NCBI GenBank assembly: GCA_963807405.1
Contig: CAWEBU010000006.1
Span: forward strand, 1,511,733-1,575,732
From: an uncultured Acidobacteriota bacterium
GTDB taxonomy: Bacteria > Acidobacteriota > Vicinamibacteria > Vicinamibacterales > UBA2999
Length of the DNA: 64,000 nucleotides
Direction of reading: 5' to 3'
This document shows, one piece after another, positions 2,122 through 53,386 of this stretch (its first letter is position 1; every line of letters begins with the position of its first letter). Made by a program: the position numbers and the translations under genes. The notes under the pieces are model-generated. The model did no database searches, was not told the origin of the DNA, and saw only the letters and a list, made by a program, of their open reading frames with translations.

Positions 2122-2151
2122 GGTGCGGATGCTCCGCCGCGGGGATCGACG

Positions 2152-2763
2152 GTGACGCTGTTCCGGGGGCTCTGGCACGGCCTGGCGCTGGTGGGACTGG
2201 CGACGGTCGGCGGCGGTGTGTGGTTCGCCTCGCAGGGCGTCGGCGCCACCGGCAGCCCATCGGCGCTCGAGACCACGGTGGCGCGCACCGCGCGGCACTG
2301 GCTGCTGCCAGCGGCCGCGAAGGCCCGCACCAATCCCGAGCCCGCAACCGCCGAGACGCGCGCCGACGGCATGGCGCACTGGGCCGACCACTGCGCCAAC
2401 TGCCACGGCAACGACGGCGCGGGAGACACGCCCATGGGTCGTGGTCTCTACCCGAAGGCGCCCGACATGCGGCTCCCCGCCACCCAGCAGCTGAGTGACG
2501 GCGAGCTGTTCACTCTCATCGAGCACGGCGTGAAGCTGACCGGCATGCCGGCGTGGACGACCGGCGACGCCGCCGGCGAACGCTCGACCTGGCATCTCGT
2601 GCAGTTCATCCGCCACCTGCCCACCCTCACCGACGACGACCTGCTGGAGATGGAAGACCTCAATCCGCGCGGGCGTGCGGAGTGGCACGCGCTCGAAGAG
2701 GAACGGCGCTTCTTGTCTGGTACACTCGACGTGCCGGAGCCGCTGCCCGGGCATCCGCACTGA
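2152..2763 (+). CDS. c-type cytochrome (membrane-anchored or secreted)
   Basis: 203 aa with a GTG start, an N-terminal hydrophobic segment, and a single haem-binding motif CANCH followed by GMPAW (class I cytochrome c-like). Confidence 0.8.
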   Translation: MTLFRGLWHGLALVGLATVGGGVWFASQGVGATGSPSALETTVARTARHWLLPAAAKARTNPEPATAETRADGMAHWADHCANCHGNDGAGDTPMGRGLYPKAPDMRLPATQQLSDGELFTLIEHGVKLTGMPAWTTGDAAGERSTWHLVQFIRHLPTLTDDDLLEMEDLNPRGRAEWHALEEERRFLSGTLDVPEPLPGHPH

Positions 2764-3770: not shown

Positions 3771-5487
3771 CTAGTAGGCCGACAGCAGCGCCGCCGCCGA
3801 CGGGAAGCGCGGTGCGATGTCCACCGGCACGTCCTTCAGCCTGTCGAGCACCTTCTGTGTCTCGGGCCGGATGACGCCGAGGGTCTCGAGCATCGTTCTT
3901 GGCCGCCGCGTAGTCGCCGACGGCCTGCATCGTCATGATGTCGCGCGCGAGCGCGGCGACGGCCTCGCGGATCCTGCCCGGCACGACCGCGAAGGTGCCG
4001 TCGGCGTTCACGGTGAAGGCCCCCTGGTCGAGCAGGTAGTTGAGCTGCACCGCCTGACCGCGCCCGTGCGCTTCGCTGATGCCGAAGCGAATCGAGCGGA
4101 AGGCCGAGGCCAGGAACGTCGTGTACATCGTGCCTTCCATCTCCTTCGGCAGCCGTCCCTTGTCGATCAGGAACTGCAGCGCGAACAGGCCGGTGATGTC
4201 CGCCTTCGCTTCCTCGACGGCACTCGACGTCTCCTTCAGCTCCTGGCGCACGGTGGTTGCCCGTCCGCCGACGGAGATGTTGTGCGGCCCGAGCCCGTGC
4301 ACGAGTTCGTGCATCAGGATGTGTGTGAAGAAGGCATCGAAGGCGACCTGGCCGCGGTCGGCCGGGGCCAGCGCCACCTGCGCGATCGGCAACAGCACGG
4401 TGTCGAACTTGGCCTGCTGGTTGTTCTTCAGCATCACCCGCTTGCTGCCCTTGGCGGCGACGACGCGCTCGTCGTTCGGCAGGTTGAAGGCCGCCGTCTG
4501 CACGCCGCGGTTGCCGTCGCCGGCCGAGAACACGGTGTTCACGACGGCGATCGGCGCCAGGCTGCCCAGCTTGGGATTGCGGTAACGCGGATCGATCGGC
4601 AGGTTGTCCTCGATCTCCTGGAGCGAGGCCGCGAACTGCTGGAGGCGCGCCGACTCGGCCTCGTCCTTGACGGTGATGAACGCCTCGAACGCCGCCTTGT
4701 AGTTGAACCACTCGTCTTCGTAGACCTCGTAGGGCCCGATCGTGGGCTCGAGTGTGGCGTCGAGCTCCATCCACTTCACGTCGCTCTCGTAGTAGTCATT
4801 CGAGAGAAACGCCGCGGCCCGCGCCTCGAGAAAGGCCTTGAGCGTCGGCTGCGCCGTGGCGTCCGCCGCCTGTCTGAGGTGCGACGCGGCCAGTGCCAGC
4901 TCCGTCTGGTACTCCAGGCTGTAGGGCACGGCCACGAATCCGCCGCCGTCGGCGCGCCGGATGGCGGTGAAGAAGCCGGTGGCGGCCTGCCGGGCCGCGC
5001 CCGTCAGCGTGCCGATCCACTGCTCGACCTCGGCCCTGGTGGCGTCGGCCGGATAGAAGTTCGCGGCGGCCGGCTTGGCGGGGACACCCGGCACGAACGG
5101 CTCGTTGTGATCGAGCCGCGACCACGGCCCCTTGTTGATGAGGAAGTAGCGCAGGCGCGCCTGGCCGCGCGCCGATTCGTCGCTGGCGAGCGCCGACAGC
5201 AGCGCCGTGTTGCCGGCCCACACCTGACGCAGGAACAGCGCGTCCATCACCTGCGCGGCGCGGATCATATGGGCCAGTGCCGTTCGCTCCGACTCCGGCA
5301 GCGCCGAGGTGTCGGCCGACAGGTCGGTCGGTGCGAAGCGGGCGGTCTGCTCGGCCAGTGCTGTCATGACCTGGTCGGTGCGCTCGGGCGCGGACCCGGC
5401 GGGCGGAGGCTCGCCAGCGCTGTTGCAGCCGGCAAGCCCGAGTGAGACGAGGGCAGCGAGGACGTACGGCGTGGTCGGTGTGGACAT
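3771..5487 (-). pseudogene. M49 (dipeptidyl-peptidase III-like) zinc peptidase lipoprotein, frame interrupted by one extra base near 3896-3897
   Basis: Start MSTPTTPYVLAALVSLGLAGC carries a lipobox. Zinc motifs are HELVH (a pentapeptide HExxH) and EEAKAD. After ...GDYAAAK the ORF-track frame becomes Arg/Pro junk. The +1 frame instead reads TMLETLGVIRPETQKVLDRLKDVPVDIAPRFPSAAALLSAY and ends at TAG (3773-3771). Confidence 0.75.
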
Positions 5488-9491: not shown

Positions 9492-9503
9492 ATCACATGG
9501 CCG

Positions 9504-12182
9504 CTACTTCTTCGCCACCAGCTGGCGCAGGACGTAGGGCAGGATGCCGCCGTGGCTGTAGGCCGCCAGCTCCTCCGGCGTGTCGATCCGGCAGATCGCC
9601 TCGAAGGACTTGACGCCGCCGGCCGCCGCCGTGGCCGTCACCGTGACGCGCGCCCGCGCCTTGAGGGCCGCGCCGGCGCCGGTCAGCGCGAACGTCTCGC
9701 GGCCATTGAGGCCGAGCGACGCGGCCGACTCGCCGTCCTGGAACTGCAGCGGCAGCACCCCCATGTTGACCAGGTTGCTGCGGTGGATGCGCTCGTAGCT
9801 CTCGGCGATGACCGCCTTCACGCCGAGCAGCATCGTCCCCTTGGCGGCCCAGTCGCGCGACGAGCCCGAGCCGTACTCCTTGCCCGCCAGCACGATGAGC
9901 GGCACGCCGGCTTCCTGGTACTTCATCGCGGCGTCGTAGATCGACATGATGTCGCCGCCGGGCAGCAGGGCCGTGACGCCGCCCTCGACGCCGGGCACCA
10001 GCTGGTTCTTGATGCGCGTATTGGCGAACGTGCCGCGCATCATCACCTCGTGGTTGCCGCGCCGGGCCCCGTAGGAGTTGAAGTCCTTGGGCGCCACGCC
10101 GTGCTCGACGAGGTACTTGCCGGCCGGGCTGTCGGCCTTGATGTTGCCGGCCGGTGAGATGTGATCGGTGGTGATGCTGTCGCCGAGCAGGGCGAGCACG
10201 CGGGCGCCGCTGATGTCGGTCAGGGGCGCCGGCTGCATCGAGAGGTTCTCGAGGAACGGCGGCCGTCGCACGTAGGTGGAATCCGCCTCCCAGTTGAAGC
10301 GGTCGCCGGTCGGCACCGGCAGGCCGCGCCAGCGCTCGTCGCCCTCGAACACGTGCGCGTACTGCGAGATGAAGGCCTGCGACGTCACGCTGGCGGCCAT
10401 CGCCGCGGCGATCTCGGTGTCGGTCGGCCAGATGTCCTTCAGGTAGACCGGCGTGCCGTCGGTGCCGGTGCCGAGGGGCTCGGTCGTCAGGTCGAGGTTC
10501 ATCGTGCCGGCAATCGCGTAGGCCACGACCAGCGGCGGCGAGGCCAGGTAGTTGGCGCGCACGTCCTGCTGGATGCGGCCCTCGAAGTTGCGGTTGCCGG
10601 ACAGGACCGAGGCCACGACCAGGCCGCGCTCGCGGATCTCGGCCGACACGTCCTCGGGCAGCGGCCCTGAGTTGCCGATGCAGGTCGTGCAGCCGTAGCC
10701 GACCAGGTTGAAGCCGATCTTGTCGAGCCAGGTGTCGAGCCCGGCCGACCGCAGGTACTCGGTGACCACCTTCGACCCGGGGGCGAGCGACGTCTTCACC
10801 CACGGCTTGCGGGTCAGGCCGCGCTCGACCGCCTTCTTCGCCACCAGCCCGGCGCCGATCATCACGCCCGGGTTCGACGTGTTGGTGCAGCTCGTGATGG
10901 CCGCGATGACGACCGACCCGTGTTCGAGCTGGGTGGCGGTCGCCACGGCCGTCCCGCCGCCGGCCGCCACCTTGACGCCCTTCCTGAGCTCGTCGAGCGA
11001 GCCGGCAAACGACGTCTTGGCGTCGCTGAGCGGCACGCGGTCCTGCGGACGGCGCGGACCGGCCAGGCTCGGCACGATGGTCGCGAGATCGAGCTCGAGC
11101 CCTTCGGAGTAGATGGCGTCCGGCGTCGACTCGGTGCGGAAGAGGCCCTGCGCCTTCGCGTAGGCCTCGACGAGTGCCACCTGATCGGCGGAACGGCCCG
11201 TGAGGCGGAGATAGTCGAGCGTCAGCTCGTCGATCGGGAAGATCGCCACCGTGGCGCCGTACTCCGGGCACATGTTGCCGAGCGTGACGCGGTCGGCGAT
11301 GGTGAGATGGCCGAGGCCGGGGCCGTAGAACTCGACGAACTTGCCGACCACCTTGTGCTTGCGCAGCGCCTCGGTGATCGTGAGCACCAGATCCGTCGCC
11401 GTGGCGCCCTCGGGCAGCTGGCCGGTGAGCCGGCAGCCGACCACCGGCGGAATCAGCATCGAGCTCGGCTGGCCGAGCATCGCCGCCTCGGCTTCGATGC
11501 CGCCCACGCCCCAGCCGACGACGCCGAGCCCGTTGACCATCGTCGTGTGCGAGTCGGTGCCGAAGCAGGTGTCCGGATAGAGCACGCCGCCTTCGTTGCA
11601 GACGACGCGCGCGAGGTACTCGATGTTCACCTGGTGGACGATGCCGGTCTCGGGCGGCACCACGCGGAAGTTCTCGAAGGCGTTCTGCCCCCAGCGCAGG
11701 AACACATAGCGCTCGCGGTTGCGCTGGTACTCGAGCTCGGCGTTCAGACCAACGGCATTCGCGGTGCCGAAGTGGTCGACCTGCACCGAGTGGTCGATGA
11801 CCAGCTCCACCGGCTGCAGCGGATTGACGCGGGCCGGGTCGCCGCCCGAGGGCGGCGATGCCGTCGCGCATGGCGGCCAGATCGACGACGCAGGGCACGC
11901 CGGTGAAGTCCTGCAGGATCACGCGCGCCGGCATGAACGAGATCTCCTTGTCGGCGTTGACCGCCGCCGGGTTCCAGCCGGCCAGGGCGCGGATGTCGTC
12001 GGCCTTCACGAAGGCGCTCGTCCTCGCGGCGCAGCAGGTTCTCGAGCAGGATCTTCAGCGAGAACGGCAGGCGCTCCACCGAGGGGAAGGCGCCGGCCAG
12101 CGCGGGCAGGCTGAAGTAGTCGTACGGACTGGTCCGCAAGACGCAGGGACATCCGGGTGCTGAACGAGTTGTGGCTGGACAT
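9504..12182 (-). pseudogene. acnA: Aconitate hydratase AcnA, frame interrupted by three single-base insertions in the first ~340 nt (gene probably functional, insertions likely consensus errors)
   Basis: The body ORF 9504..11810 is unmistakable aconitase ([44 protein letters not shown]). The N-terminus is readable only by changing frame. MSSHNSFSTRMSLRLADQS runs from ATG 12182. It is followed by [37 protein letters not shown], then [56 protein letters not shown], then [19 protein letters not shown]. Confidence 0.9.
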
Positions 12183-12376
12183 GATCCCGGGAATTCTAAC
12201 AGGTGGCGCCGCGCCTGCGGTCGCCAACGGGCAGCGAGCGTCCGCGGCCGGACACCGCGCCGCCACCGGCTGCCGTGGCGGCGCCGCCGCTGCCGGTGTT
12301 TGCGGCGGGATCTCGCCGCGCCGGATGGCCACGCCGCGCCGCCGCCGCTGGCACGGAATTGGTAAGCACGCAGGGC

Positions 12377-14813
12377 ATGCGCGACGTCCTGCTCGGGTTC
12401 CGCACCCTCGGCCGCCGTCCTGGCCTGGCCGCCGCGGCGATCGCCTCGATCGCTCTCGGCATCGGGGCCTCGACCGCCATCTTACGGCGTGGTGCGGCAC
12501 GTTCTGCTCACGCCTCTGCCCTACGCGGCGCCGGAACGCCTGGTCATGCTGTGGGAGACCGCGCCCGACAACCCGGCCCGCTGGGTGGCTCCAGCCAACT
12601 ACCTCGACTGGCGGCGCGACCTGGCGCCGGACGTCGAGTCGATGGCCGCCTTCGACAGCGTCTCGCTCACCCTCACGGGCGCCGGCGAGCCCGAGCGCCT
12701 GCGCGGCGTGTCGGCCTCGGGCACCTTCTTCGCGACGCTCGGGCAGCCGGTGGCCGAGGGGCGCGCGCTCGTGCCCGACGACGATGCTCCCGGCGCGCCG
12801 TGCGTGGCGGTGCTGAGCGCCGGCCTGCGCGCCCGTCGCTTCCCCGGCGCCGTGCTCGGCCTGCCGCTCGTCCTCGACGGACAGCCCTGCACCGTCGTCG
12901 GCGTGCTGCCCGACGCCTTCCGCTTCCCCCTGCAACCGCGCGCCGAGATCTGGACCAGCGGCGATCGCGGCGTGCCGCGATCGTTCCCCTTCCCCGGCGA
13001 CATCACCACCGTCCGCGACGCGCACCTGCTGTTCGTCATCGCCCGCCTCAAGGACGGCGTCGCGCACGAAACCGCCGAAGCCCGGCTGCAGACCGTGGCG
13101 ACACAGCTCGCCGACGCCTATCCGGACACCAACAGCGGCCTCGGGGCGCGCGTGATGTCCCTGCACGAGGCCGTGGTCGGCGATGTGCGCGGCGTGCTGT
13201 GGCTGCTGCAGGCCGGCGTGCTCGTCCTGCTGCTCGTGGCGGCCGCCAATGTCGCGCACCTGCTCATCGGCCGGGCGGCGAGCCGCCGGCACGAACTCGC
13301 CGTGCGGGTGTCGCTCGGCGCCGGCCGGCGCCATCTCACCCACCAGATGCTCGGCGAGGCTCTCGCCTTCGCCTTGCCCGGCGGAGTGCTCGGGGTGCTG
13401 CTGGCGGCCTGGGGTGTCGACCTGCTGGTGGCGCTGGCCCCAGCCGGGCTGCCGCGGGTGCAGGAGATCGTCCTCGATGGCGGCGTGCTCGCCGCCGCCG
13501 CCGCGCTCACGCTGATGACGACGCTGGTGGTCGCGCTGGCGCCGCTGGCCGGCGCCGGCCTGCCGCCGGCCGCGGCGCTGCAGTCGGGAGGGGTGAGGCT
13601 CGTCGGCCGCGGTGGCGAGCGGCGCTGGCACCGCGGACTGGTGGTGGCGGAACTGGCGCTGGCGCAGGTCGTCGTCGTGGGCGCGTGGTTGCTCGCGACG
13701 AGTCTGGCGGCCGCCACCAACGTCGAACTCGGCTACGACACCGAGCGCCGGGTGGCCGCCGAACTGACCCTGGCGCCCGACCGCTACTCGCAGCCCGCTG
13801 ACGGCCAGGCGGGGGCGGCACCGATTGCCCGCTTCGTCGGCGCCGTACTCGACGACGTCGGCCGCGCTCCGGGCGTCAGAGCGGCGTCGGCTGCCTTCAC
13901 CGCGCCGCTGTCCGGCGCGCCCAATCGCGGCGTGCGTATCGTCGGCCATCCCGAGCCGGCCAGGGGCCAGGAGCCGGACGCGGACTTCCAGGTGGTCACG
14001 CCCGGCTTCTTCGAGACGCTCGGCATCAGGCTCAGCACCGGACGCTTCCTCGCCAGCACCGACGCTGAGGGCGCGCCCGACGTCGTGGTCGTCAACGAGG
14101 CCTTCGCGGCGCGTCATTTCCCCGGGACCACGGCACTCGGCCGCATCATCGAGTTCGGGCGGGCCCGCCACGAGATCGTCGGCGTCGTCGCCGACACGCG
14201 CTACCGGCGCGTGGAAACCCCGCCCTACCCCACCTTCTACGTGCCGCTGGCCCAGAGCGACGAGGCGTGGCCGTTCCTGGCCTTCATCGTCTGGGCCGAC
14301 GCGGACCCGGCGGTGGTGACGGCCGCACTGCGCGCGGCGGTCAGCCGGGTCGATCCGGCGCAGCCGATCTCCTCGGTGCGCACACTCGAGGCGACCGTCT
14401 CCGACGCCCTGGCGGGGCGGCGCTTCAACGCCGCGCTGTTCACGCTGTTCGCACTCGTCACGATGGTGCTGGCCGTGGTCGGCGCCTACGGCGTGACGGC
14501 GGCGCTCACCGCGGCGCGGGCGCGCGAGTTCAGCATCCGCGCCGCCCTCGGCGCGTCTGGCGGACGGCTGCGGGCGACCATCGTGGCGGATGCCGCCCTC
14601 CTGGCTCTCGTGGCATCGGCCGCCGGCCTCGCCATCGCCTGGCTTGGCGGCCGCGCCCTCGACGGGCTGCTCTTCGGCGTGACCGCACGCGATCCCTGGC
14701 TGCTGACCGCGGCGGCGGTGACCGTCACGGTGGCGGCACTGGCCGCCGCCGGCCCCTCCGCCTGGCGCGCCGGTCGCACGACGCCGATGGACGCGCTGCG
14801 CCTCGACGGGTGA
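12377..14813 (+). pseudogene. ADOP-family / MacB-like duplicated FtsX permease (orphan, no adjacent ATPase), one extra base at 12482-12483
   Basis: ATG 12377 gives MRDVLLGFRTLGRRPGLAAAAIASIALGIGASTAI. The frame then shifts by +1 into ORF 12489..14813 (GVVRHVLLTPLPYAAPERLVMLWE...). It has two FtsX-type 4-TM modules with large periplasmic loops. Confidence 0.8.
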
Positions 14814-14851
14814 AGCGGCCCTCCGTGGTCGCGTGACGCCAGGAGGACGGC

Positions 14852-15781
14852 CTACGGCCCGCCCTTCTTGAGCAGCTGTGGCGACACCCGGGCGCCGAGG
14901 CTGGTCGCGCCGGCCACCTGCGTGAAGTAGCCATAGGCGGCGGCCGACACCTGCTCCACCACGTCGGCCGCGGTGGCGTCGCCGTAGGTCACCATCACCG
15001 ACATCGCGTAGGGCGCGCCGTCCACTTTCACGATCGCCCACGCCGTGCTCACGCCGCTCAGCGACCCCGGCTTCCACGCCACCGCGACCGACGGCGGAAT
15101 GGGCGCGCGGAACGCGCCGCCCTTGGGCAGTTCCAGCAGGCGCGTCACCTCGGCGCACGACGCCGCGGTGAGCGGCACGTCACACCGCCACAGGCGCGCC
15201 ATCAGATCGGCGGCCTCGCGCGGCGTCGAGATGTTCTCGCGCCCGGCCGCCTGGTCTTCCGGCCGGATCATCTTGCGCTCGAAGCGCGTGCTCGACAGGC
15301 CGAGAGCCGCCATCGTCGCGTTGACCTTCGCGAGCCCTACGGCGTCGATGAGCATGTTGGTGGCGGTGTTGTCCGACAGCACGACCATCGGGACGGTCAG
15401 GTCGTGCAGCGACAGCGCCGACCCGCCGTCCGAGAAGTACTGCAGCAGGCTGCTGCCGCCCGTACGGTCGGCGGCCGTGAGCGTCACGCGGTCGGTGAGG
15501 GCCAGCTCCCCGGCGTCGGCGCGGCGAAACAGCTCGAGGAGCAGCGGGATCTTGATGGCACTGCCCTGCGGGAAGACCGTCGCACCGTTGACGTCCCAGC
15601 GCCGGCCGTTCGTGAGATCGACGACGCTCACGCCGACCACGCCGGTACTGGTCGCCGCCAGACGCTCGAGCGTCTGCTGGAACTTGGCCGCGAGCTGGTC
15701 GGCCAGTGATGGCTGCGCCCCGGCGGCAGCGGGTGCCAGCACACCAACGACGGCCATCACCCAGGCGAGACGACCCCTCAT
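14852..15781 (-). CDS. Class A beta-lactamase-related serine hydrolase (secreted)
   Basis: SxxK motif (GSAIKIP), SDN motif (LSDNTATN) and the KTG-equivalent KPGS. The likely start is MRGRLAWVMAVVGVLAPAAAGA at 15781, forming an ATGA overlap with the stop of the upstream M20 gene. Confidence 0.7.
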   Translation of the reverse strand: MRGRLAWVMAVVGVLAPAAAGAQPSLADQLAAKFQQTLERLAATSTGVVGVSVVDLTNGRRWDVNGATVFPQGSAIKIPLLLELFRRADAGELALTDRVTLTAADRTGGSSLLQYFSDGGSALSLHDLTVPMVVLSDNTATNMLIDAVGLAKVNATMAALGLSSTRFERKMIRPEDQAAGRENISTPREAADLMARLWRCDVPLTAASCAEVTRLLELPKGGAFRAPIPPSVAVAWKPGSLSGVSTAWAIVKVDGAPYAMSVMVTYGDATAADVVEQVSAAAYGYFTQVAGATSLGARVSPQLLKKGGP

Positions 15782-17280
15782 CGCGGCATCGTCATCAAGG
15801 CGGCCAGCATCTCGATGCCCTCCCACAGGTTCTGGAGCCGCAGATTCTCGTCGGGCCCGTGCTGGTTGTTGTCGAAGTTGACGATCGAGACGCCCACGGT
15901 CGGCATCGCGTACTGGTCGCTGAAGGTGCCGAACGGCAGGCCGCCGCCGAGCGTCGGCAGCTGCACCGGCGGTACGCCGCCCATGGTCAGCGCCCGGACC
16001 ACGGCCTGGGCTTTCGGATCGTCCATCGAGACACGCGAGGCCGCCGAGCCGCGTCGCGCGTCTACGCGCGCGATCAGGCGCTCGCGGCGGCGCTCCTCGT
16101 CGGTCGGCTCGCGGCCGCTGACGATGAAGTAGCCCTGCGCGCGGATGTGCTCCGTGATGAGCGCGTTCTGCGTCTCTGGCACGAGGTCCTTGACCATCCG
16201 CACCTCGATGCGCGCGCTGGCCGAGCCGGGAATGGCCGACCGGCCGGCAATGCCGCTGGTCGACATCTCGAGGATGCTGAGCGTGGGCTGGTTCAGCTTC
16301 ACCTCGAGCCGCTCGTCGGGCCGCTCGGGAACAGCCACGCCGAAGTCGCGCGCCAGCACGGCCTCGACGTCGGGGGCAGCGGCCAGCGCCTGACGTTCGG
16401 TGGCGGTGAGCGGCCGGACGTCGCGGTAGAAGTCCTTGATGAGGACGCGGCCGGCGTCGTCCTTCATGGTCGCCAGCAGCTTCGCCAGGCGCATCGCCGG
16501 GTCCGGCGCCCAGTTGCCGTAGTTGCCCGAGTGCAGATCGCTTCTGGCGCCGTAGACCGTGACGGTCACGCCAGCGCCGCCGCGCACGCCGAAGTAGACG
16601 GTGGGCCGGCCGCTCGGGTGGCGCGGCCCGTCGAGCGTGATGGCGAGATCGGTCTTGAGGGCGCCGGCGCGCGCGGTCGCGAAGCGGCGGAAGTTCGCCG
16701 ACCCGGCCTCCTCCTCACCGTCGAGGACCACCCGCAGATTCCACCGCGGGCCGCTGCCGGTCGCCCGCACGGCATCGACGGCGTTCAGGAGAGCCACGAT
16801 CGGCCCCTTGTCGTCGGAGGCCGAGCGCCCGTAGAGCCGCCACTCGGGATCGAACGTGGTGCGGGCCGGATCCTCGGCCACCGGGCCGCTCGCGCTCCAC
16901 AGGCAGGGCGTGAACGGCTGGCAGCGCGTCCACTCGGACGGATCCACCGGCTGGCCGTCGTAGTGGATGTAGAAGGTGAGCGTGCCGGCCGCGTCCGGCA
17001 CATCGAGGGTGGCAAAGACGACCGGCGAGCCCGGACCGCTGACGGTCTCCACCTTGAACTGGCGGGCGGTGAAGAGCGTCTGCAGGTGGGCCGCGTTCTT
17101 CTGCATGTCGGCGTCGTTGCCGGCGACGTTCGGCAGCGCGACCAGCGTCCGCAGTTCGTCGACGATGGCGCGCTCGTGGGCGCGCCGCCACTCGGTGATG
17201 GCCGGCGGCTGGGCCGCCGCGAACGTCGCGCCGAAGGTCAGCGCCAGCGCCGTCGCGGCGCCGAAGTCTCTCACGTGCAT
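15778..17280 (-). CDS. M20/M25/M40 family metallopeptidase (secreted dipeptidase-like)
   Basis: Internal ATG 17280 (MHVRDFGAATALALTFGATFAAAQ, a signal peptide) within ORF 15778..17925. It carries the M20 motif YGRSASDDKGPIVA and a dimerisation-domain-sized insert. Confidence 0.8.
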   Translation of the reverse strand: MHVRDFGAATALALTFGATFAAAQPPAITEWRRAHERAIVDELRTLVALPNVAGNDADMQKNAAHLQTLFTARQFKVETVSGPGSPVVFATLDVPDAAGTLTFYIHYDGQPVDPSEWTRCQPFTPCLWSASGPVAEDPARTTFDPEWRLYGRSASDDKGPIVALLNAVDAVRATGSGPRWNLRVVLDGEEEAGSANFRRFATARAGALKTDLAITLDGPRHPSGRPTVYFGVRGGAGVTVTVYGARSDLHSGNYGNWAPDPAMRLAKLLATMKDDAGRVLIKDFYRDVRPLTATERQALAAAPDVEAVLARDFGVAVPERPDERLEVKLNQPTLSILEMSTSGIAGRSAIPGSASARIEVRMVKDLVPETQNALITEHIRAQGYFIVSGREPTDEERRRERLIARVDARRGSAASRVSMDDPKAQAVVRALTMGGVPPVQLPTLGGGLPFGTFSDQYAMPTVGVSIVNFDNNQHGPDENLRLQNLWEGIEMLAALMTMPR

Positions 17281-17312
17281 GCCTGCCTCCCCGCCGTCGC
17301 CGGCGCCGTATC

Positions 17313-18902
17313 CTACCTCGCGAGTCCCGCCGGTGTGAGCCAGCCCTGCGCGCGGGCCAGCACCAGGTCGACGATGAGCGCCAGCAGCGCCGCCGGCACC
17401 GCGCCGGACAGGATCATGCGGGTGTCGGCCAGCGCCAGGCCGGCCACGATGGGATCGCCGAGTCCGCCTCCGCCGACGAAGGCGGCCAGCGTCGCGGTGC
17501 CGACGTTGGTCACGGCGGCCGTGCGCACGCCGGCCATGATCACCGGCACGGCCAGCGGCACCTGCACCCACAGCAGCACCTGGCGGGCTGTCATGCCGAG
17601 CGCCACGGCGGCCGCCACGGCGCCTGGGTCGGCTTGCCGCACGCCCGTCACCGTGCCGCGCACGATCGGGTAGAGCGAGTAGAGAAACAGCGCGGCGATC
17701 GCCGGCAGGACGCCGATCCCCAGCACCGGCAGCATGAACGCGAGCAGCGCGATGCCGGGCACCGTCTGCAGCAGGCCGACGCCGCGCGTCGCCACCTCGG
17801 CCGCGCGCCGGCGGGCCAATAGCAGACCCAGGCCGACCCCGACGACGATGGCGGCGGCGAGCGACACGCCGGCGAGCCACAGGTGGCGGAGGCTCATGCC
17901 GGCGATGGCCTGGCGCCGCGCCCACAGGTAGCCGAGAAACGACGCGGTGGGGCGATCCGCCGCGGCCGTCGCGGATGCGGCAGCCGAATCGCGCGCGCCG
18001 ACCAGCCCGAGATCGACGAGCGCGGCGGCGGCCACGTCGGCGGCGGGCCGGCCTTCCACTTCCACTTGCGCATTCATCCGGCGCATGCGCGTGACGTCGA
18101 TGCGGCCGCTCAGCTCGGCCAGCGCCGCCACCACCGCCGGCCGCTCGCGCGCCACCGCGCCACGCACCACCGCCGCGGCGTCGTAGGGCGGGAACAGGTC
18201 GCGGTCGTCGACGAGCACGGTGAGCGGATAGCGGTCGAGCAGACCGTCGGTCGAGTAGGCATCGATGATGTCGACGTCGCCGGCCACCAGCGCCTGGTAC
18301 TTGATGGCGGGCGCCAGGGCGCTGACGCGCGCGGGCGACAGCCCGTAGACCTCGCGCAAGGCAGGCAGCCCGTCCGGCAGGCCGATGAAGTCCGCCGTGA
18401 AGCCGGCGCGGAGCTGGCTGCTGACCCGCGCCGCATCGCTCAGCGTCTTCAGCCCCAGGCGCGTCGCCATCTCGGTGCGGACCGACATCGCGTAGGTGTT
18501 CTCGAAGCCCAGAGGCGCGAGCCAGCGCACGTCGTAGCGGGCGGCGAACTCACGCGACACGGTATCGAACACCTGTGCGGGATCACTCGCCGACGGCGCC
18601 TTCAAGATGACGAGCAGGCCCGAGCCCGTGTACTCGGGAAAGACGTCGATGGCGCCCTGCCGCAGGGCCGGGAAGATGATCTCGGTGCCGCCGAGGCCGA
18701 AGCGGCGGCTGACCGTGAGGCCGCGGGCCTCGAGGATCTGCGCGAACAGTTCGGCCAGCAGGTACGACTCACCGAAGGGCTTCGATCCCACCACCACCGG
18801 CGGTCCGCCGGCCGGCGCCTGCGCGCGTGCTGGCGGCATCACCGCCAGCAGACAGGCGCAAGCCGCCGCCAGCGTCACGACCCGGCGCACGCCCCGGCTC
18901 AC
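17313..18902 (-). CDS. ABC transporter, fused substrate-binding (glycine betaine/choline-type) and permease protein
   Basis: 529 aa. A signal peptide is followed by an OpuBC/ProX-like domain (KPFGESYLLAELFAQILE...FPEYTGSGL) and then a 5-6 TM BPD-type permease domain. Confidence 0.8.
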   Translation of the reverse strand: MSRGVRRVVTLAAACACLLAVMPPARAQAPAGGPPVVVGSKPFGESYLLAELFAQILEARGLTVSRRFGLGGTEIIFPALRQGAIDVFPEYTGSGLLVILKAPSASDPAQVFDTVSREFAARYDVRWLAPLGFENTYAMSVRTEMATRLGLKTLSDAARVSSQLRAGFTADFIGLPDGLPALREVYGLSPARVSALAPAIKYQALVAGDVDIIDAYSTDGLLDRYPLTVLVDDRDLFPPYDAAAVVRGAVARERPAVVAALAELSGRIDVTRMRRMNAQVEVEGRPAADVAAAALVDLGLVGARDSAAASATAAADRPTASFLGYLWARRQAIAGMSLRHLWLAGVSLAAAIVVGVGLGLLLARRRAAEVATRGVGLLQTVPGIALLAFMLPVLGIGVLPAIAALFLYSLYPIVRGTVTGVRQADPGAVAAAVALGMTARQVLLWVQVPLAVPVIMAGVRTAAVTNVGTATLAAFVGGGGLGDPIVAGLALADTRMILSGAVPAALLALIVDLVLARAQGWLTPAGLAR

Positions 18903-19648
18903 GCCGACGCTCCGGCCAGGCGCGCCCGCGCCAGCAGCTCGGCCACGTAGTCGGTGGCCGGCGCCGTCGTGAGCGCCTGCGGGGTGCTCGTCTGCTCGAG
19001 CCGGCCCCGGCGGATGACGGCGATGCGGTCGGCCAGCAGGGACGCCTCGTACAGATCGTGCGTCACGAGCAGCGCCGCCGTACGGGTGCGCCGGCGCAGC
19101 GCCAGGAACAGCTCCTGCAGTTCGCTGCGCGAGATGGCATCGAGGGCGCCGAACGGCTCATCGAGCAGCACGATGCGCGGGCTGTCGGCCAGCGCCCGCG
19201 CGAACGCCACGCGTTGCCGCTGCCCGCCCGAGAGCTGATGCGGCCAGCGCGCCCCGAACTGCGCCACCGGCAGCCCGACCAGTTCGAGCGCGGCCGCCGC
19301 CAGGGCGGCCGGATCGGAGCGGCCGGCCAGCCGCGGCACGAGCGCGGCATTGGCCGCCACCGTCCAGTGCGGCAGCAGGCCGCCGTCCTGCGGGACATAG
19401 CCCATGCCTCGCCGCAACAGGACGGGATCGAGCGTCCGCAGTTCCCGCCCGTCGACGAAGGCCTCTCCGGCATCGAGCGCCGTCAGGCCGTTGAAGACGC
19501 GCAGCAGCGTGCTCTTGCCCGAGCCGCTCTCGCCGACGAGCGCCACGCACTCGCCGGGCGCCACCTCGAGCGAGACGTCGTCGAGCGCCACCACGCCGCC
19601 GTAGTGCTTGGTGGCGCCGACGGCCCGCAGCGCGGCTTCACTCATCAC
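18899..19648 (-). CDS. ABC transporter ATP-binding protein (partner of 17313..18902)
   Basis: Walker A GESGSGKST, signature LSGGQRQR, Walker B LLDEPF. It has a 4-nt overlap with the downstream permease gene and no CBS domains. Confidence 0.85.
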   Translation of the reverse strand: MMSEAALRAVGATKHYGGVVALDDVSLEVAPGECVALVGESGSGKSTLLRVFNGLTALDAGEAFVDGRELRTLDPVLLRRGMGYVPQDGGLLPHWTVAANAALVPRLAGRSDPAALAAAALELVGLPVAQFGARWPHQLSGGQRQRVAFARALADSPRIVLLDEPFGALDAISRSELQELFLALRRRTRTAALLVTHDLYEASLLADRIAVIRRGRLEQTSTPQALTTAPATDYVAELLARARLAGASA

Positions 19649-19649
19649 G

Positions 19650-20360
19650 TCAGAGGCCGGCGAACAGCCGGACCGATGCCGTCGGCATACCGCGGGTGCC
19701 GCCGGTGAAGGCGATGCCGCCGCTGCGCCAGTGCCACCCGAGTTCGGTCGTCACGCCGAGCGACCGGCCCTGCCGCGCGCCGAGAAGCCACAGGCGCAGA
19801 CCAGCGGCGGCCGACCATACCTGCCCGGTCTCGACGAGCACCCGCTCCTCGTGCAGCTGCCGCAGATAGGCGCCGCCCGCCGCCAGATACGGACGCCCGC
19901 GGCCACCGAACGACCAGCGCGGCAGACCGTAGAGCAGGCGCGCCCCCACGGTGTACTCGTCGACGCGTTCGCTGGCCGTCACCGCTGGCGCGCCCTCGGC
20001 GTCACCGCTGATGGCGACCGTGAGCGTCGGTCGCGCCGCTCCACCCACGATCTCGACGGCCAGCGTGCGCGTGACGGGCACGGCCAGACCGAGCTCCAGT
20101 CGCGCGGCGCCGTCGAGCGTCGACGTCGTGTCGAAGAGCGTGAACGGCGGCGGCGTCAGCGTCCCGAGCGTCGTGGCGCGGGTGGAGGCGGTGACCGTGC
20201 CGAGGGCTTCGCTGCCGCTCCAGCCTCCGCCCACGCTCAGCACGGGATGCCCGGGGCGCCACGAGACCGGAGCCGCGCCGGCCGGCTGTGCCGACGACCT
20301 CCCGGCCGCGGCCAGGAGCGCGCAGACGGCGAGAGCGGTGAGGCGCCCCGGCGTGGTCAT
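19650..20360 (-). CDS. Hypothetical secreted protein, possible small outer-membrane beta-barrel
   Basis: 236 aa with signal peptide MTTPGRLTALAVCALLAAAGRSSA. Alternating Gly/aromatic/hydrophobic strands run throughout (GGGWSGSE, YLAAGGAYL, GLRLWLLG, ELGWHWRSG). It has a 4-nt overlap with the matrixin gene. Confidence 0.45.
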   Translation of the reverse strand: MTTPGRLTALAVCALLAAAGRSSAQPAGAAPVSWRPGHPVLSVGGGWSGSEALGTVTASTRATTLGTLTPPPFTLFDTTSTLDGAARLELGLAVPVTRTLAVEIVGGAARPTLTVAISGDAEGAPAVTASERVDEYTVGARLLYGLPRWSFGGRGRPYLAAGGAYLRQLHEERVLVETGQVWSAAAGLRLWLLGARQGRSLGVTTELGWHWRSGGIAFTGGTRGMPTASVRLFAGL

Positions 20361-21349
20361 CTCGGCCGGACCTCGATCGTCTGGGCGCTCGACGCCCCGC
20401 CGGCCTGCACGACCGCCAGCCGCGATCCGTAGGTCACGGCGAAGGCGACGTCGACCTCGGCCGGCCCGAAGAAGCTTTCGACATCGGCGTCGTCGAGCGG
20501 CTCGACGCGGAGCACGTACGGCCCTTCGGTCACGCCGGCGATGACGAAGTCGCCGTTGGCGTTGAGGGTGTAGCCGGCGATCATCTCGCCAGACGCGAGG
20601 CCGAAGGCGACGACGTGCGCCCCATACACGCCGCGGCCGTTCTTCGTCACGCGGCCCTGGATACTGCCGAACTCCCCGGCCGGCAGCACCTCGTAGAGAT
20701 CCCGCACGCCGGCCATGTCGTCGGGCTGCAGCATCCGATCGGCGATGCTGCCGGGCGGCCAGGCAATCGGGAACATGATCGCGCCGGTCGACAACACGCG
20801 CCGGCCGCTGCCGCTGACCTCGGTCTCGCCGAGGGCGGAGTGGCCGAGCCCGAGCACATGTCCCAGTTCGTGCAGCGCCACGGATTCGAGATCGTGGGCG
20901 CCGGCTTCACCCGTCGCCGCGGTGGACCAGCGGAAGCGCGTGTTGAAGTAGATGTCCGCCTCGAGCAGCGTACCGGTCGTGGCATCGAGCAGGAACGTCG
21001 CGGCGCCGAGCACGCGCTCCTGGTCGGGGCGGTCGAGGAACCCGATGGTCGAGCGGCCGTCGGATTCGAGGGGCCGGCTGCGGGTGAGCCCCTGGGCGCT
21101 GAACGACACCGGCAGGCCGGGGACACCGTTCCAGGTGGTGGCGGCACGGCCGATGGCATCACCGAACGCCTGTGAAGAGATGCCCCCGAAGTCGCGCTCA
21201 AGGACGAAGTAGGGGATCGGGCCAGGTGTCCAGCGCACGGGGACGGTGCGCCCGCCCACCTCGATGCCGAACTTCAGATAGGCGTGGACCGGGGCCGTCG
21301 CGGCAGTGAGGACGCCGACGACGGTGGCGATGACGGCCAGGCGCCTCAT
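20357..21349 (-). CDS. Matrixin (M10A, MMP-like) zinc metalloprotease with C-terminal carboxypeptidase-regulatory-like beta-sandwich
   Basis: HELGHVLGLGHS (HExxHxxGxxH) plus the Met-turn GAIMFP. A signal peptide is present. The protein has no cysteine at all, so no cysteine-switch prodomain. The C-terminus GRVTKNGRGVYGAHVVA...PYVLRVEP resembles CarboxypepD_reg. Confidence 0.8.
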   Translation of the reverse strand: MRRLAVIATVVGVLTAATAPVHAYLKFGIEVGGRTVPVRWTPGPIPYFVLERDFGGISSQAFGDAIGRAATTWNGVPGLPVSFSAQGLTRSRPLESDGRSTIGFLDRPDQERVLGAATFLLDATTGTLLEADIYFNTRFRWSTAATGEAGAHDLESVALHELGHVLGLGHSALGETEVSGSGRRVLSTGAIMFPIAWPPGSIADRMLQPDDMAGVRDLYEVLPAGEFGSIQGRVTKNGRGVYGAHVVAFGLASGEMIAGYTLNANGDFVIAGVTEGPYVLRVEPLDDADVESFFGPAEVDVAFAVTYGSRLAVVQAGGASSAQTIEVRPR

Positions 21350-33091: not shown

Positions 33092-35270
33092 ATGGGATCA
33101 GACACGCTGAGCGCCGCCATCGACCACATGCGCCGTTGGGCCATGCACGAGGGCCGAGCCGTCCACGAGCCCGCGCAGGTGGGCGAGATCTTCGGATCGC
33201 TGGTCTTCAACGACGCCGTGCAGCAGGCGCGGCTCCCGAAGGCGGTCTGGCAGGCGCTCCGCGATACGGTCACCAAGGGCACGCCGCTCGAGATGTCGGC
33301 CGCCGACGCGGTGGCGTCCGCCCTCAAGGACTGGGCCGTCGAGCACGGGGCCTCGCACTACACGCACTGGTTCCAGCCGATGACCGGCATCACGGCCGAG
33401 AAGCACGACTCGTTCTACTCGCCCACCGGCGATGGCCGCTCGATGGCCGAGTTCAGCGGCAAGGAACTGGTGCGCGGCGAGCCCGACGCGTCGAGCTTCC
33501 CGTCGGGCGGCATGCGCAGCACGTTCGAGGCCCGCGGCTACACCGCCTGGGACCCGACCAGCCCGCCGTGGCTGCTCGTCACCGGCAACTCGGCCACGCT
33601 CGTCATTCCGACCGCGTTCGTCAGCTGGACCGGCGAGTCGCTCGACAAGAAGACGCCGCTCCTGCGTTCGATGGAAGCGCTCTCGACGCAGGCCGTCCGC
33701 GCGCTCAGGCTGTTCGGCGTGCCGGCCTCGCGCGTCACCGCCACCTGCGGCCCCGAGCAGGAGTACTTCCTGATCGACCGCCACTTCTATTACAACCGGC
33801 CCGACCTCATCAACGCCGGCCGGACGCTGTTCGGCGCGCGGCCGCCGAAGGGACAGGAGCTCGAGGATCAGGTACTTCGGCTCGATCCCCGAACGCGTGC
33901 TCGCCTTCATGGCCGAAGTCGAGACCGAGCTCTACAAGGTCGGCGTGCCGATCAAGACGCGCCACAACGAGGTGGCGCCGTCGCAGTACGAGCTGGCGCC
34001 GATCTTCGAGAGCATGAACGTGGCCACCGATCATCAGATGATGACGATGGAGACGCTCAAGCGCATCGCGCCGAAGTACGGCCTGGCCTGCCTGACCCAC
34101 GAGAAGCCGTTCGCCGGCGTCAACGGCTCGGGCAAGCACGTCAACTGGAGCATGAGCGACGACCTCGGCAACAACCTGCTCAACCCGGGCGCGACGCCGC
34201 ACGACAACATGCAGTTCCTGTTCTTCTGCACGGCCGTCGTCCGCGCGGTCGACACGTTCCAGGGCCTGCTGCGGATGAGCATCGCCAGCGCCGGCAACGA
34301 TCACCGGCTGGGCGCCAACGAGGCGCCCCCGGCGATCCTGTCGATCTTCCTCGGCGACATGCTGACCGAGGTGCTCGAGCAGGTCGAGAACGGCGGCCCC
34401 AAGTCGAGCCGGCACGGCGGCGTGCTCGACATCGGCGTCTCGGTGCTGCCGAAGCTGCCGCGCGATGCCGGCGACCGCAACCGTACCTCGCCCTTTGCCT
34501 TCACCGGCAACAAGTTCGAGTTCCGCGCGGTGTCGGCCAACCAGAGCATCGCCTTCCCGTCGACCTGCCTCAACGTGGCGGTCTCGGAATCGCTCGACTT
34601 CATGTGCGCCCAGCTCGAAGGCGCGCTCGCCAAGGGCGAGGGCCTGGAGGAGGCCGTCGCCTCGCTGCTGAAGGCGACCCTGAAGAAGCACAAGCGGATC
34701 ATCTTCAATGGCAACGGCTACGCGATGGAGTGGCAGAAGGAGGCCACCAAGCGCGGGCTGCTCAACCACAAGAACACGGTGGACGCGCTGCCCGAGATCA
34801 CCTCGGATCTGGTGGTCAAGACGTTCGAGAAGTTCAAGGTCCTCACCGGCCGCGAACTGCACGCCCGCTACGAGGTCAACGTCGAGGCCTACAACAAGAC
34901 CATCAACGTCGAGGCGCAGCTCATGGTGCTGATGGCCAACCGGTTCATCCTGCCGGCCGCGCTGGAGTATCAGCGCGCCGTGGCGGCCAGCGTGACGGCC
35001 GTCAAGCAGGCCGGCGGCACCAGCCGCGAGGGCAAGAAGCTGCTCAGCAAGCTGGTCAAGCTGGTCGACCAGTTCCGCGCGCAGACCGACGTCCTCGCCG
35101 GGGCGCTCGATCACAGCGCTCCCAGCGCCGAGAAGCACGCGAAGTACATGCGCGACAAGGTCGTGCCGGCGATGGTGCGGCTCCGTGAGCTGGGCGATCA
35201 GCTGGAGGTCGTGGCACCGCACGGCACCTGGCCGCTGCCGACCTACCGGGAGATGCTCTTCATCAAGTAG
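33092..35270 (+). pseudogene. glnN: Type III glutamine synthetase (GlnN-type), one extra base at 33871-33872
   Basis: The N-terminal part lies in ORF 32978..35188, from ATG 33092: ...[14 protein letters not shown]...[11 protein letters not shown]...[10 protein letters not shown]. The rest lies in ORF 33897..35270: (YFGSIPER)[35 protein letters not shown]...[10 protein letters not shown]. Removing one g from caGGtac restores a 725-codon frame. Confidence 0.9.
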
Positions 35271-45724: not shown

Positions 45725-47818
<2,094 letters not shown>

Positions 47819-53344: not shown

Positions 53345-53386
53345 GACCGCGGCGACGGCCGGCGCGCACGAACAAAGGGAGATGGA

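Follow-up and report, generated by a model that had tools for sequence, protein, structure and literature searches.

The gene for aconitate hydratase A (acnA) lies at positions 9504–12182 on the minus strand of the DNA analysed here, a 64-kb stretch (the window) from an uncultured soil bacterium of the Vicinamibacterales. In the deposited sequence, it is a single gene written over three frames, with three single-base insertions. The question that this locus raises is whether the extra bases belong to the organism, either as lesions of a decaying or freshly mutated gene or as sites at which decoding changes frame, or whether they entered the sequence when the contig was assembled.

Reading frames of acnA in the deposited sequence

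Three-frame translation and the list of ORFs agree that the first 112 codons of acnA are spread over three minus-strand frames, and no single uninterrupted reading frame spans the gene as deposited. The frame opened by the ATG at 12182 encodes codons 1–19 (MSSHNSFSTRMSLRLADQS; 12126–12182), which align with the N-termini of the orthologues at loci L001 and L082 (MSSRNSFSTR...QS), and then continues as nonsense until it meets a premature stop at 12006–12008. The first insertion, an extra G at 12125 (CAGTCC[G]TACGAC), is without counterpart in the DNA of nine orthologous loci. Beyond it, 37 conserved codons beginning YDYFSLPAL (12017–12124; segment 12017–12123 in the frame-tracking HMM described below) are one base out of phase and can be read only in a second frame, according to both translation and DNA alignment. 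An extra C at 12016 (GACGAG[C]GCCTTC) follows, after which 56 conserved codons are a further base out of phase and legible only in the third frame (11848–12015 by the same translation and alignment; HMM segment 11847–12016). The third insertion is one extra G within the run CTCGG[G]CGGC (11845–11847), where the orthologues have CTC-GGC/GGG. The ATG frame is then resumed, and the body of the gene (9504–11844), which is without a further indel in alignments against L001 and against human IRP1, runs to the acnA stop at 9504–9506. The ORF listed for this body covers 9504–11810 and encodes 768 aa. At the first site, the extra base could alternatively be a C at 12126–12127, if the true serine codon is TCG.

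Each of the three shifts is a +1 change, as the distances 12182–12139, 12139–12009 and 12009–11810 are all congruent to 1 modulo 3, and their net effect on the frame is zero. A first-pass annotation of this DNA had proposed just such a set of three frame-restoring insertions, with the ATG and the gene body in one frame, the intervening conserved codons readable only in the two others and the ATG frame closed by the stop at 12006–12008. The reading frames, the shift arithmetic and the DNA alignments with the nine orthologues all support this description. Only the wording of the second junction needed correction: the frame change is real, but the protein there reads ...REDEA|FVK, matching L001, and not REDER|FVK, and removal of the extra C restores EDEAFVK, as found in L001, L081 and L082.

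Identity of the repaired gene and selection on its frame

Deletion of the three bases gives an acnA ORF of 891 codons that is free of stops, so that the check named in the first-pass annotation, a continuous AcnA of about 890 codons after removal of one base per site, has a positive outcome. The repaired protein matches the family profile NCBIfam NF006757 from end to end (profile positions 2–887 of 888, 1407.5 bits against a cut-off of 686), while the 768-aa ORF enters the same profile only at position 125. It also scores 1333.5 bits against TIGR01341 (cut-off 945) and aligns without a break to human IRP1 (2b3x) over residues 35–887, with an E value of 0. The AcnD model TIGR02333 gives it 848, under the cut-off of 1420. 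The Fe-S cysteine motifs SCTNTSNP and CTTCIGNSG are intact and align with the same motifs in IRP1, and the three cysteine ligands of the 4Fe-4S cluster by which an AcnA is recognized stand within these conserved motifs.

The extra bases are unique to the window. DNA alignments covered nine orthologous loci, six of them from other Vicinamibacterales and Acidobacteriota genomes (L001, L041, L002, L006, L029 and L005), two from metagenomes (L081 and L082) and L083 as the ninth, and all nine lack all three acnA insertions. The closest intact AcnA relatives reached 91% identity in the protein search and 90% in the genome scan, and a DNA pattern scan of metagenomes returned two loci with 84–87% DNA identity to the window; none of these searches yielded another assembly of the species.

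The comparison with L001, the closest genome locus, bears on how long the repaired frame has been in use. Over the 93 codons that lead from the first insertion to the third, the two genes show 4 amino-acid and 18 synonymous-only differences; over the other 779 codons, there are 74 and 157, respectively. Comparisons with L041, L002, L006 and L082 gave a similar picture. By these counts, the repaired frame is under the same purifying selection as the remainder of the gene, and the intervening segment, whose lack of conservation in the alternative frames would have spoken against the original proposal, is conserved in exactly those frames. Since the divergence of the shifted codons is mostly synonymous, selection must have acted on the repaired frame for nearly the whole time since the lineages split, and the insertions are consequently either extremely recent or not real. 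A degenerating pseudogene was considered and rejected, because selection shows no relaxation (4 versus 18 differences), no other indel is present and no stops remain after repair. In the global alignment with L001, no further indel was found in acnA between 11847 and 9481, which agrees with the remark in the first-pass annotation that the density of errors in this gene is very uneven.

A fourth insertion in the neighbouring permease gene

Divergent from acnA, an ADOP-family duplicated permease is encoded on the plus strand (12377–14813) and is broken by an insertion at 12484 (ATCTT[A]CGGCGTG). After repair, the protein matches TIGR03434 over positions 3–802 of 803, with 714.8 bits. The extra base is missing from all of the loci that cover the site (L001, L041, L082 and L083). 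A lesion in this permease had already been suspected at 12482; the insertion is real, and its position is 12484.

Further frameshifts across the window

The genome has a G+C content of 70.7%, exceeding 90% at third codon positions, so that the coding frame can be tracked directly from base composition. An HMM with seven states (six frames and one non-coding state) and a penalty for stop codons was run over the 64 kb. It recovered the acnA shifts and a further six frame changes far from any stop, all of them +1. On the minus strand, these lie in a peptidase gene (about 3893–3897), where the base added at about 3897 is missing from 12 relatives; in a gene for a YdjM-family membrane hydrolase (about 29560), whose fragments match Pfam YdjM 1–78 and then 89–174; in an acyl-CoA ligase gene (about 30986; AMP-binding 2–128, then 158–384); and in dnaK (about 47308; HSP70 1–105, then 108–598). 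The two on the plus strand affect the gene for a type III glutamine synthetase, glnN (about 33868), whose two parts have consecutive Pfam profile coordinates, and that for a PDZ/S41 peptidase (about 57628), in which PDZ is followed by S41 17–165. Five of the six sites are accordingly confirmed by Pfam, the paired fragments matching consecutive parts of one profile. The repaired DnaK aligns without gaps to mortalin and to solved Hsp70 structures, which identifies the lesion as +1 and not −2. A candidate eleventh frameshift at 53345 was discarded, as it is the boundary between an NAD kinase gene and a DinB-family gene.

In total, the window holds ten lesions (at least seven beyond acnA, with the permease included), scattered at roughly one per 6 kb, and every one is a single-base insertion, with no deletion among them. 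Indel spectra in bacteria are usually biased towards deletions. We considered whether this 10:0 count could reflect a detection bias against deletions, which meet stops sooner. This was rejected: the HMM gave no hidden −1 junction in the window, since at every frame change of the −1 type an in-frame stop was no more than 22 nt away, the pattern that true boundaries between genes would give.

Four of the ten insertions fall within 640 nt, for which P is about 8e-4 under uniform placement, and this adds to the evidence for an uneven error density. The cluster is a real excess, and poor polishing of this patch is the best explanation for it. The suggestion that the region around acnA is a locally problematic piece of assembly is therefore upheld as far as the local excess goes, but the problem is not only local, given the at least six further +1 changes elsewhere, dnaK included. 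Extreme G+C content, through failed short-read polishing, was rejected as the cause of the cluster because the sites lie at ordinary GC percentiles, and a search of the cluster for repeats or a palindrome that might have caused misassembly returned only short matches at chance level.

The sequence context of the insertions is only partly shared. A G stands directly 5' of TAC at three of the ten, for which random placement gives P of about 2e-4 for three or more, the pattern having been noticed post hoc. The context CAGGTACT is common to the dnaK and glnN insertions; this 8-mer is frequent in the genome, with five copies, three of which are in unshifted window sequence, for example inside acnA. 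We found no motif or methylation site common to the insertions, as GTAC/TAC adjoins three or four sites and not the others, and the G-before-TAC context is missing at the insertions of L083, described below. This context may reflect a k-mer-specific bias of basecalling or polishing.

Frameshifts in related loci and their assembly methods

As a control, the same census was carried out on 43 related loci. Thirty-five of them, mostly from short-read MAGs (542 kb), contained one real frameshift, a −2 change in a GC repeat of L023; two candidates in L035 were rejected as artefacts of N-masked stretches. The other eight loci (175 kb) come from Nanopore MAGs of the Microflora Danica project. Visual inspection of three-frame translations led us to accept seven candidate junctions in them as real +1 shifts, one of which was also seen in a DNA alignment. 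One of the seven sits inside the acnA of L038, at a position that differs from those in the window. For the long-read MAGs of Microflora Danica, only Nanopore data were assembled, and Medaka polishing was limited to one round (PMC12313526); indels are the main type of Nanopore error, causing frameshifts in MAGs and more of them at low coverage (PMC8103633).

The closest long-read relative of the window, L083, lies on a 2.94 Mb contig, encodes an AcnA that is 91% identical and is syntenic with window positions 1065–22144. It lacks all five of the window insertions within its coverage and carries a +1 of its own in the ADOP permease gene. Moreover, a span of about 210 nt in its cytochrome c gene contains six or more single-base insertions; the same gene is intact in the window, and L029, a short-read outgroup, has the reading of the window at two of these insertion sites. 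Frameshifts that consist of insertions only, at times tightly clustered, thus track the assembly method and not the lineage.

Origin of the insertions

We conclude that the three acnA bases, together with the fourth in the permease gene, are very probably consensus errors of the assembly and not part of the DNA of the organism. The truncated AcnA of the window (P0041, 768 aa, 100% identity) is recorded by NCBI and ENA on a single contig of 3,726,184 bp, and a single contig of several megabases implies a long-read assembly. Most likely, this contig derives from a Nanopore-type MAG, a platform that we infer from its length of 3.73 Mb and from the error signature it shares with the related Nanopore MAG loci. 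The residual errors of such an assembly would be single-base insertions, scattered along the contig and at times bunched in a short, badly polished patch, and the real locus would consist of an intact acnA of 891 codons beside an ordinary ADOP permease gene. The process appears to be contig-wide in its insertion type, with a local excess at 11845–12484; low local coverage could account for the bunching, as could mixed pile-ups in which highly conserved DNA draws in reads of other strains or species living in the same sample. What leads us to read the acnA insertions as artefacts is that one-base insertions of the same kind break further conserved genes throughout the window, dnaK among them. 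DnaK is a chaperone that is usually indispensable, and it is not plausible that a free-living soil bacterium would carry dnaK, glnN, acnA and five other conserved genes all freshly broken, by insertions only and with no other damage. Some observations count against an error: neither extreme G+C content nor repeats at the sites would explain a local failure, the context of G before TAC is over-represented, and only one of the four clustered insertions extends a homopolymer, the textbook type of Nanopore error.

That last observation could be taken to favour genuine and very recent mutations, by which an insertion-biased mutator or clustered error-prone repair would have produced fresh pseudogenes in the lineage or in its dominant strain. 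The bases do stand in the sequence as deposited, most of them cannot be put down to homopolymer slippage, a single repair event with several hits might in principle leave so tight a cluster, and the over-representation of G before TAC hints at a process that is not random. However, the shifted codons show no relaxation of selection, other lesions are absent, with neither stops in the repaired frames nor deletions, and dnaK and nine other conserved sites within 64 kb would all have had to receive a +1 change. The signature is, furthermore, present in different organisms, in each of which the mutational process would have had to act independently, and only in long-read contigs, which points to the method and not to the lineage, and we regard such mutations as improbable. 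A more far-reaching version, in which clustered, insertion-only and context-biased frameshifts (G 5' of TAC) are real DNA in essential genes of this Vicinamibacterales lineage and its long-read relatives, are tolerated through some form of +1 suppression and are missed or 'repaired' by short-read assemblies, seems highly improbable to us. A full-length AcnA might also be made from the sequence as written, through programmed +1 ribosomal frameshifting or correction of the transcript. The three acnA shifts do sum to zero, and at four sites the old frame presents a rare NTA codon (GTA or TTA) and the new frame continues with TAC, an arrangement loosely akin to +1 sites at hungry codons. Yet this NTA-TAC motif is missing at six of the ten sites, there is neither a slippery sequence nor an adjacent stop, the shift sites are conserved in no orthologue, the acnA of L038 is shifted at a different place and the CAGGTACT context is also found three times where no shift occurs. 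We know of no precedent for three consecutive programmed shifts in one gene, and decoding of this kind has a probability close to nil.

Within the preferred reading, that of consensus error, a more specific variant deserves attention. Where reads from several strains or sister species pile up on conserved DNA, the consensus might keep both alleles of an SNP as adjacent bases, and this would explain why the insertions bunch and why they favour conserved genes. Four pinned sites can be read as wobble pairs of this sort (TCC/TCG at 12125, GAG/GAC at 12016, GGG/GGC at 11845–11847 and AAC/AAG at about 3897), both alleles occur among relatives at three of the four and the 5' region of acnA has long stretches that are invariant across species. 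Microdiversity in these soils is high (PMC12313526), and a mechanism of the same sort is documented where alleles are collapsed into one consensus, in which variants close to each other cause reads to be misaligned and indels to be introduced (PMC8445201). On the other hand, the keeping of both alleles can describe any insertion, by our estimate an apparent wobble pair would arise at about 40% of insertions placed at random, so that four of seven is not significant, and much of the remaining acnA is equally conserved and yet clean. We therefore hold this variant only tentatively, at rather less than even chances, and as a sub-mechanism for the local cluster it is plausible only.

Consequences for annotation

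The acnA insertions are almost certainly an artefact and not biology, and their main use is as a quality flag. Taken at face value, no fewer than eight genes of this 64-kb window, acnA, dnaK and glnN among them, would enter an annotation as pseudogenes or with truncated proteins, and the 768-aa AcnA fragment is already public as P0041. For a soil lineage known only from uncultured members, calls of this kind skew the reconstruction of metabolism, the number of pseudogenes and the alignments of protein families. The signature is usable at the level of the contig: all frameshifts are insertions, their density is roughly one per 6–25 kb, and some are packed into dense patches of 4–7 over a few hundred bases. 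Correction tools that take frameshifts into account could be directed at this pattern.

Comparison with known systems

The repaired protein is a member of the AcnA/IRP1 family (NF006757, TIGR01341 and 2b3x), which it matches from end to end at scores above the curated cut-offs. It differs from other members only as written, since the gene is split and the product of the gene caller (P0041, 768 aa) begins at about residue 124.

Programmed +1 frameshifting of the prfB or Ty1/Ty3 type resembles the present case in that reading can continue only if one base is passed over and that, at some sites, a rare codon stands in the old frame. The absence of conservation and of a common slippery or stop context, along with three shifts in one gene, sets the acnA sites apart, and we do not assign them to this class. 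A closer parallel is offered by the indel artefacts of collapsed alleles (PMC8445201), in which local clusters of apparent frameshifts arise where nearby variants disturb the alignment of reads. Those were described in a diploid eukaryote, whereas the putative 'alleles' here would be co-occurring strains of a metagenome.

The closest counterpart is found in the frameshifting indel errors of long-read assemblies and MAGs, both Nanopore and PacBio (PMC8103633, PMC12007338 and PMC12313526). The window departs from these in that ten out of ten lesions are insertions, most of them outside homopolymers, and that four are bunched within 640 nt, on a contig whose platform we infer. In all other respects the likeness is close: conserved genes are split into adjacent ORFs in different frames, and the lesions are scattered over the assembly, are not found in orthologues and interrupt genes that are otherwise perfectly conserved.

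Single-base insertions elsewhere in the window

Insertions resembling those of the aconitase gene acnA were also found in other genes of the window. The dnaK gene (45725–47633, minus strand) is split by one added base, an extra G at ~47308 (AAGCAG[G]TACTCG), with the Pfam HSP70 profile matched over positions 1–105 in one frame and 108–598 in the next; once repaired, DnaK aligns without gaps to Hsp70 structures. Likewise, glnN, encoding a type III glutamine synthetase (about 33100–35270, plus strand), is split by an extra G at ~33868 (GATCAG[G]TACTTC), and this site has the 8-mer CAGGTACT in common with the dnaK site. Further +1 frameshifts, positioned to a precision of about 15 nt only, affect an acyl-CoA ligase (~30986; AMP-binding 2–128, then 158–384), a YdjM-family membrane hydrolase (~29560; profile 1–78, then 89–174) and a PDZ/S41 C-terminal processing peptidase (~57628). 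Another peptidase gene carries a +1 frameshift at 3897 (AAGAA[C]GATG), where 12 relatives lack the extra base.

Across the whole aconitase gene, the minus strand also presents a stop-free ORF of 838 codons in the wrong frame (9493–12009), owing to a G+C content of about 71%. The length of an ORF alone is thus a misleading guide in this window.

Sequence context of the insertions

At 3 of the 10 insertions in the window, the inserted base is a G immediately 5' of TAC (GTAC sites 12122, 33871 and 47306); under random placement, at least three such cases would be expected with a probability of about 2e-4, a value calculated post hoc. A fourth insertion, at 12484, creates TTAC. The excess of G before TAC may reflect a context-specific bias in basecalling or polishing.

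Genomic neighbourhood of acnA

The ADOP permease and further genes adjoin acnA in the window and in three related loci (L001, L041 and L083). In most other relatives, L002, L005 and L006 among them, the DNA flanking acnA corresponds to the window from ~20.4 kb onward, a stretch that includes lpxD. On this comparison of gene order, the block at 12.2–20.4 kb (12200–20400) is predicted to be a lineage-specific insertion or rearrangement.

Frameshifts in related loci

Loci from the Microflora Danica Nanopore MAGs have +1 frameshifts of their own (L008:19268 and 22544; L032:15447 and 16889; L034:16559; L038:~10239), the last of which (GAGAT[T]CTCG) lies within acnA, about 100 nt from the acnA sites of the window. 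In the clade's other 35 loci, most of which come from short-read MAGs, frameshifts are almost absent. The sole real frameshift observed outside the Nanopore loci, L023:7942, is a 2-base loss within a GCGCGCGC run, in the ABC-ATPase signature region (LSGGQRQRVGVARA|LAVDPP), and its MAG appears to be a short-read assembly.

The closest long-read relative, L083 (ENA ERZ25039603 contig_7531, 2.94 Mb), has its own +1 frameshift in the ADOP permease (L083:9239) and a possible +1 close to the end of an M20 peptidase gene (L083:6238). Its cytochrome c gene (CxxCH) contains at least six single-base insertions in about 210 nt (L083:21292–21498), whereas the same gene is unbroken in the window (2148–2760).
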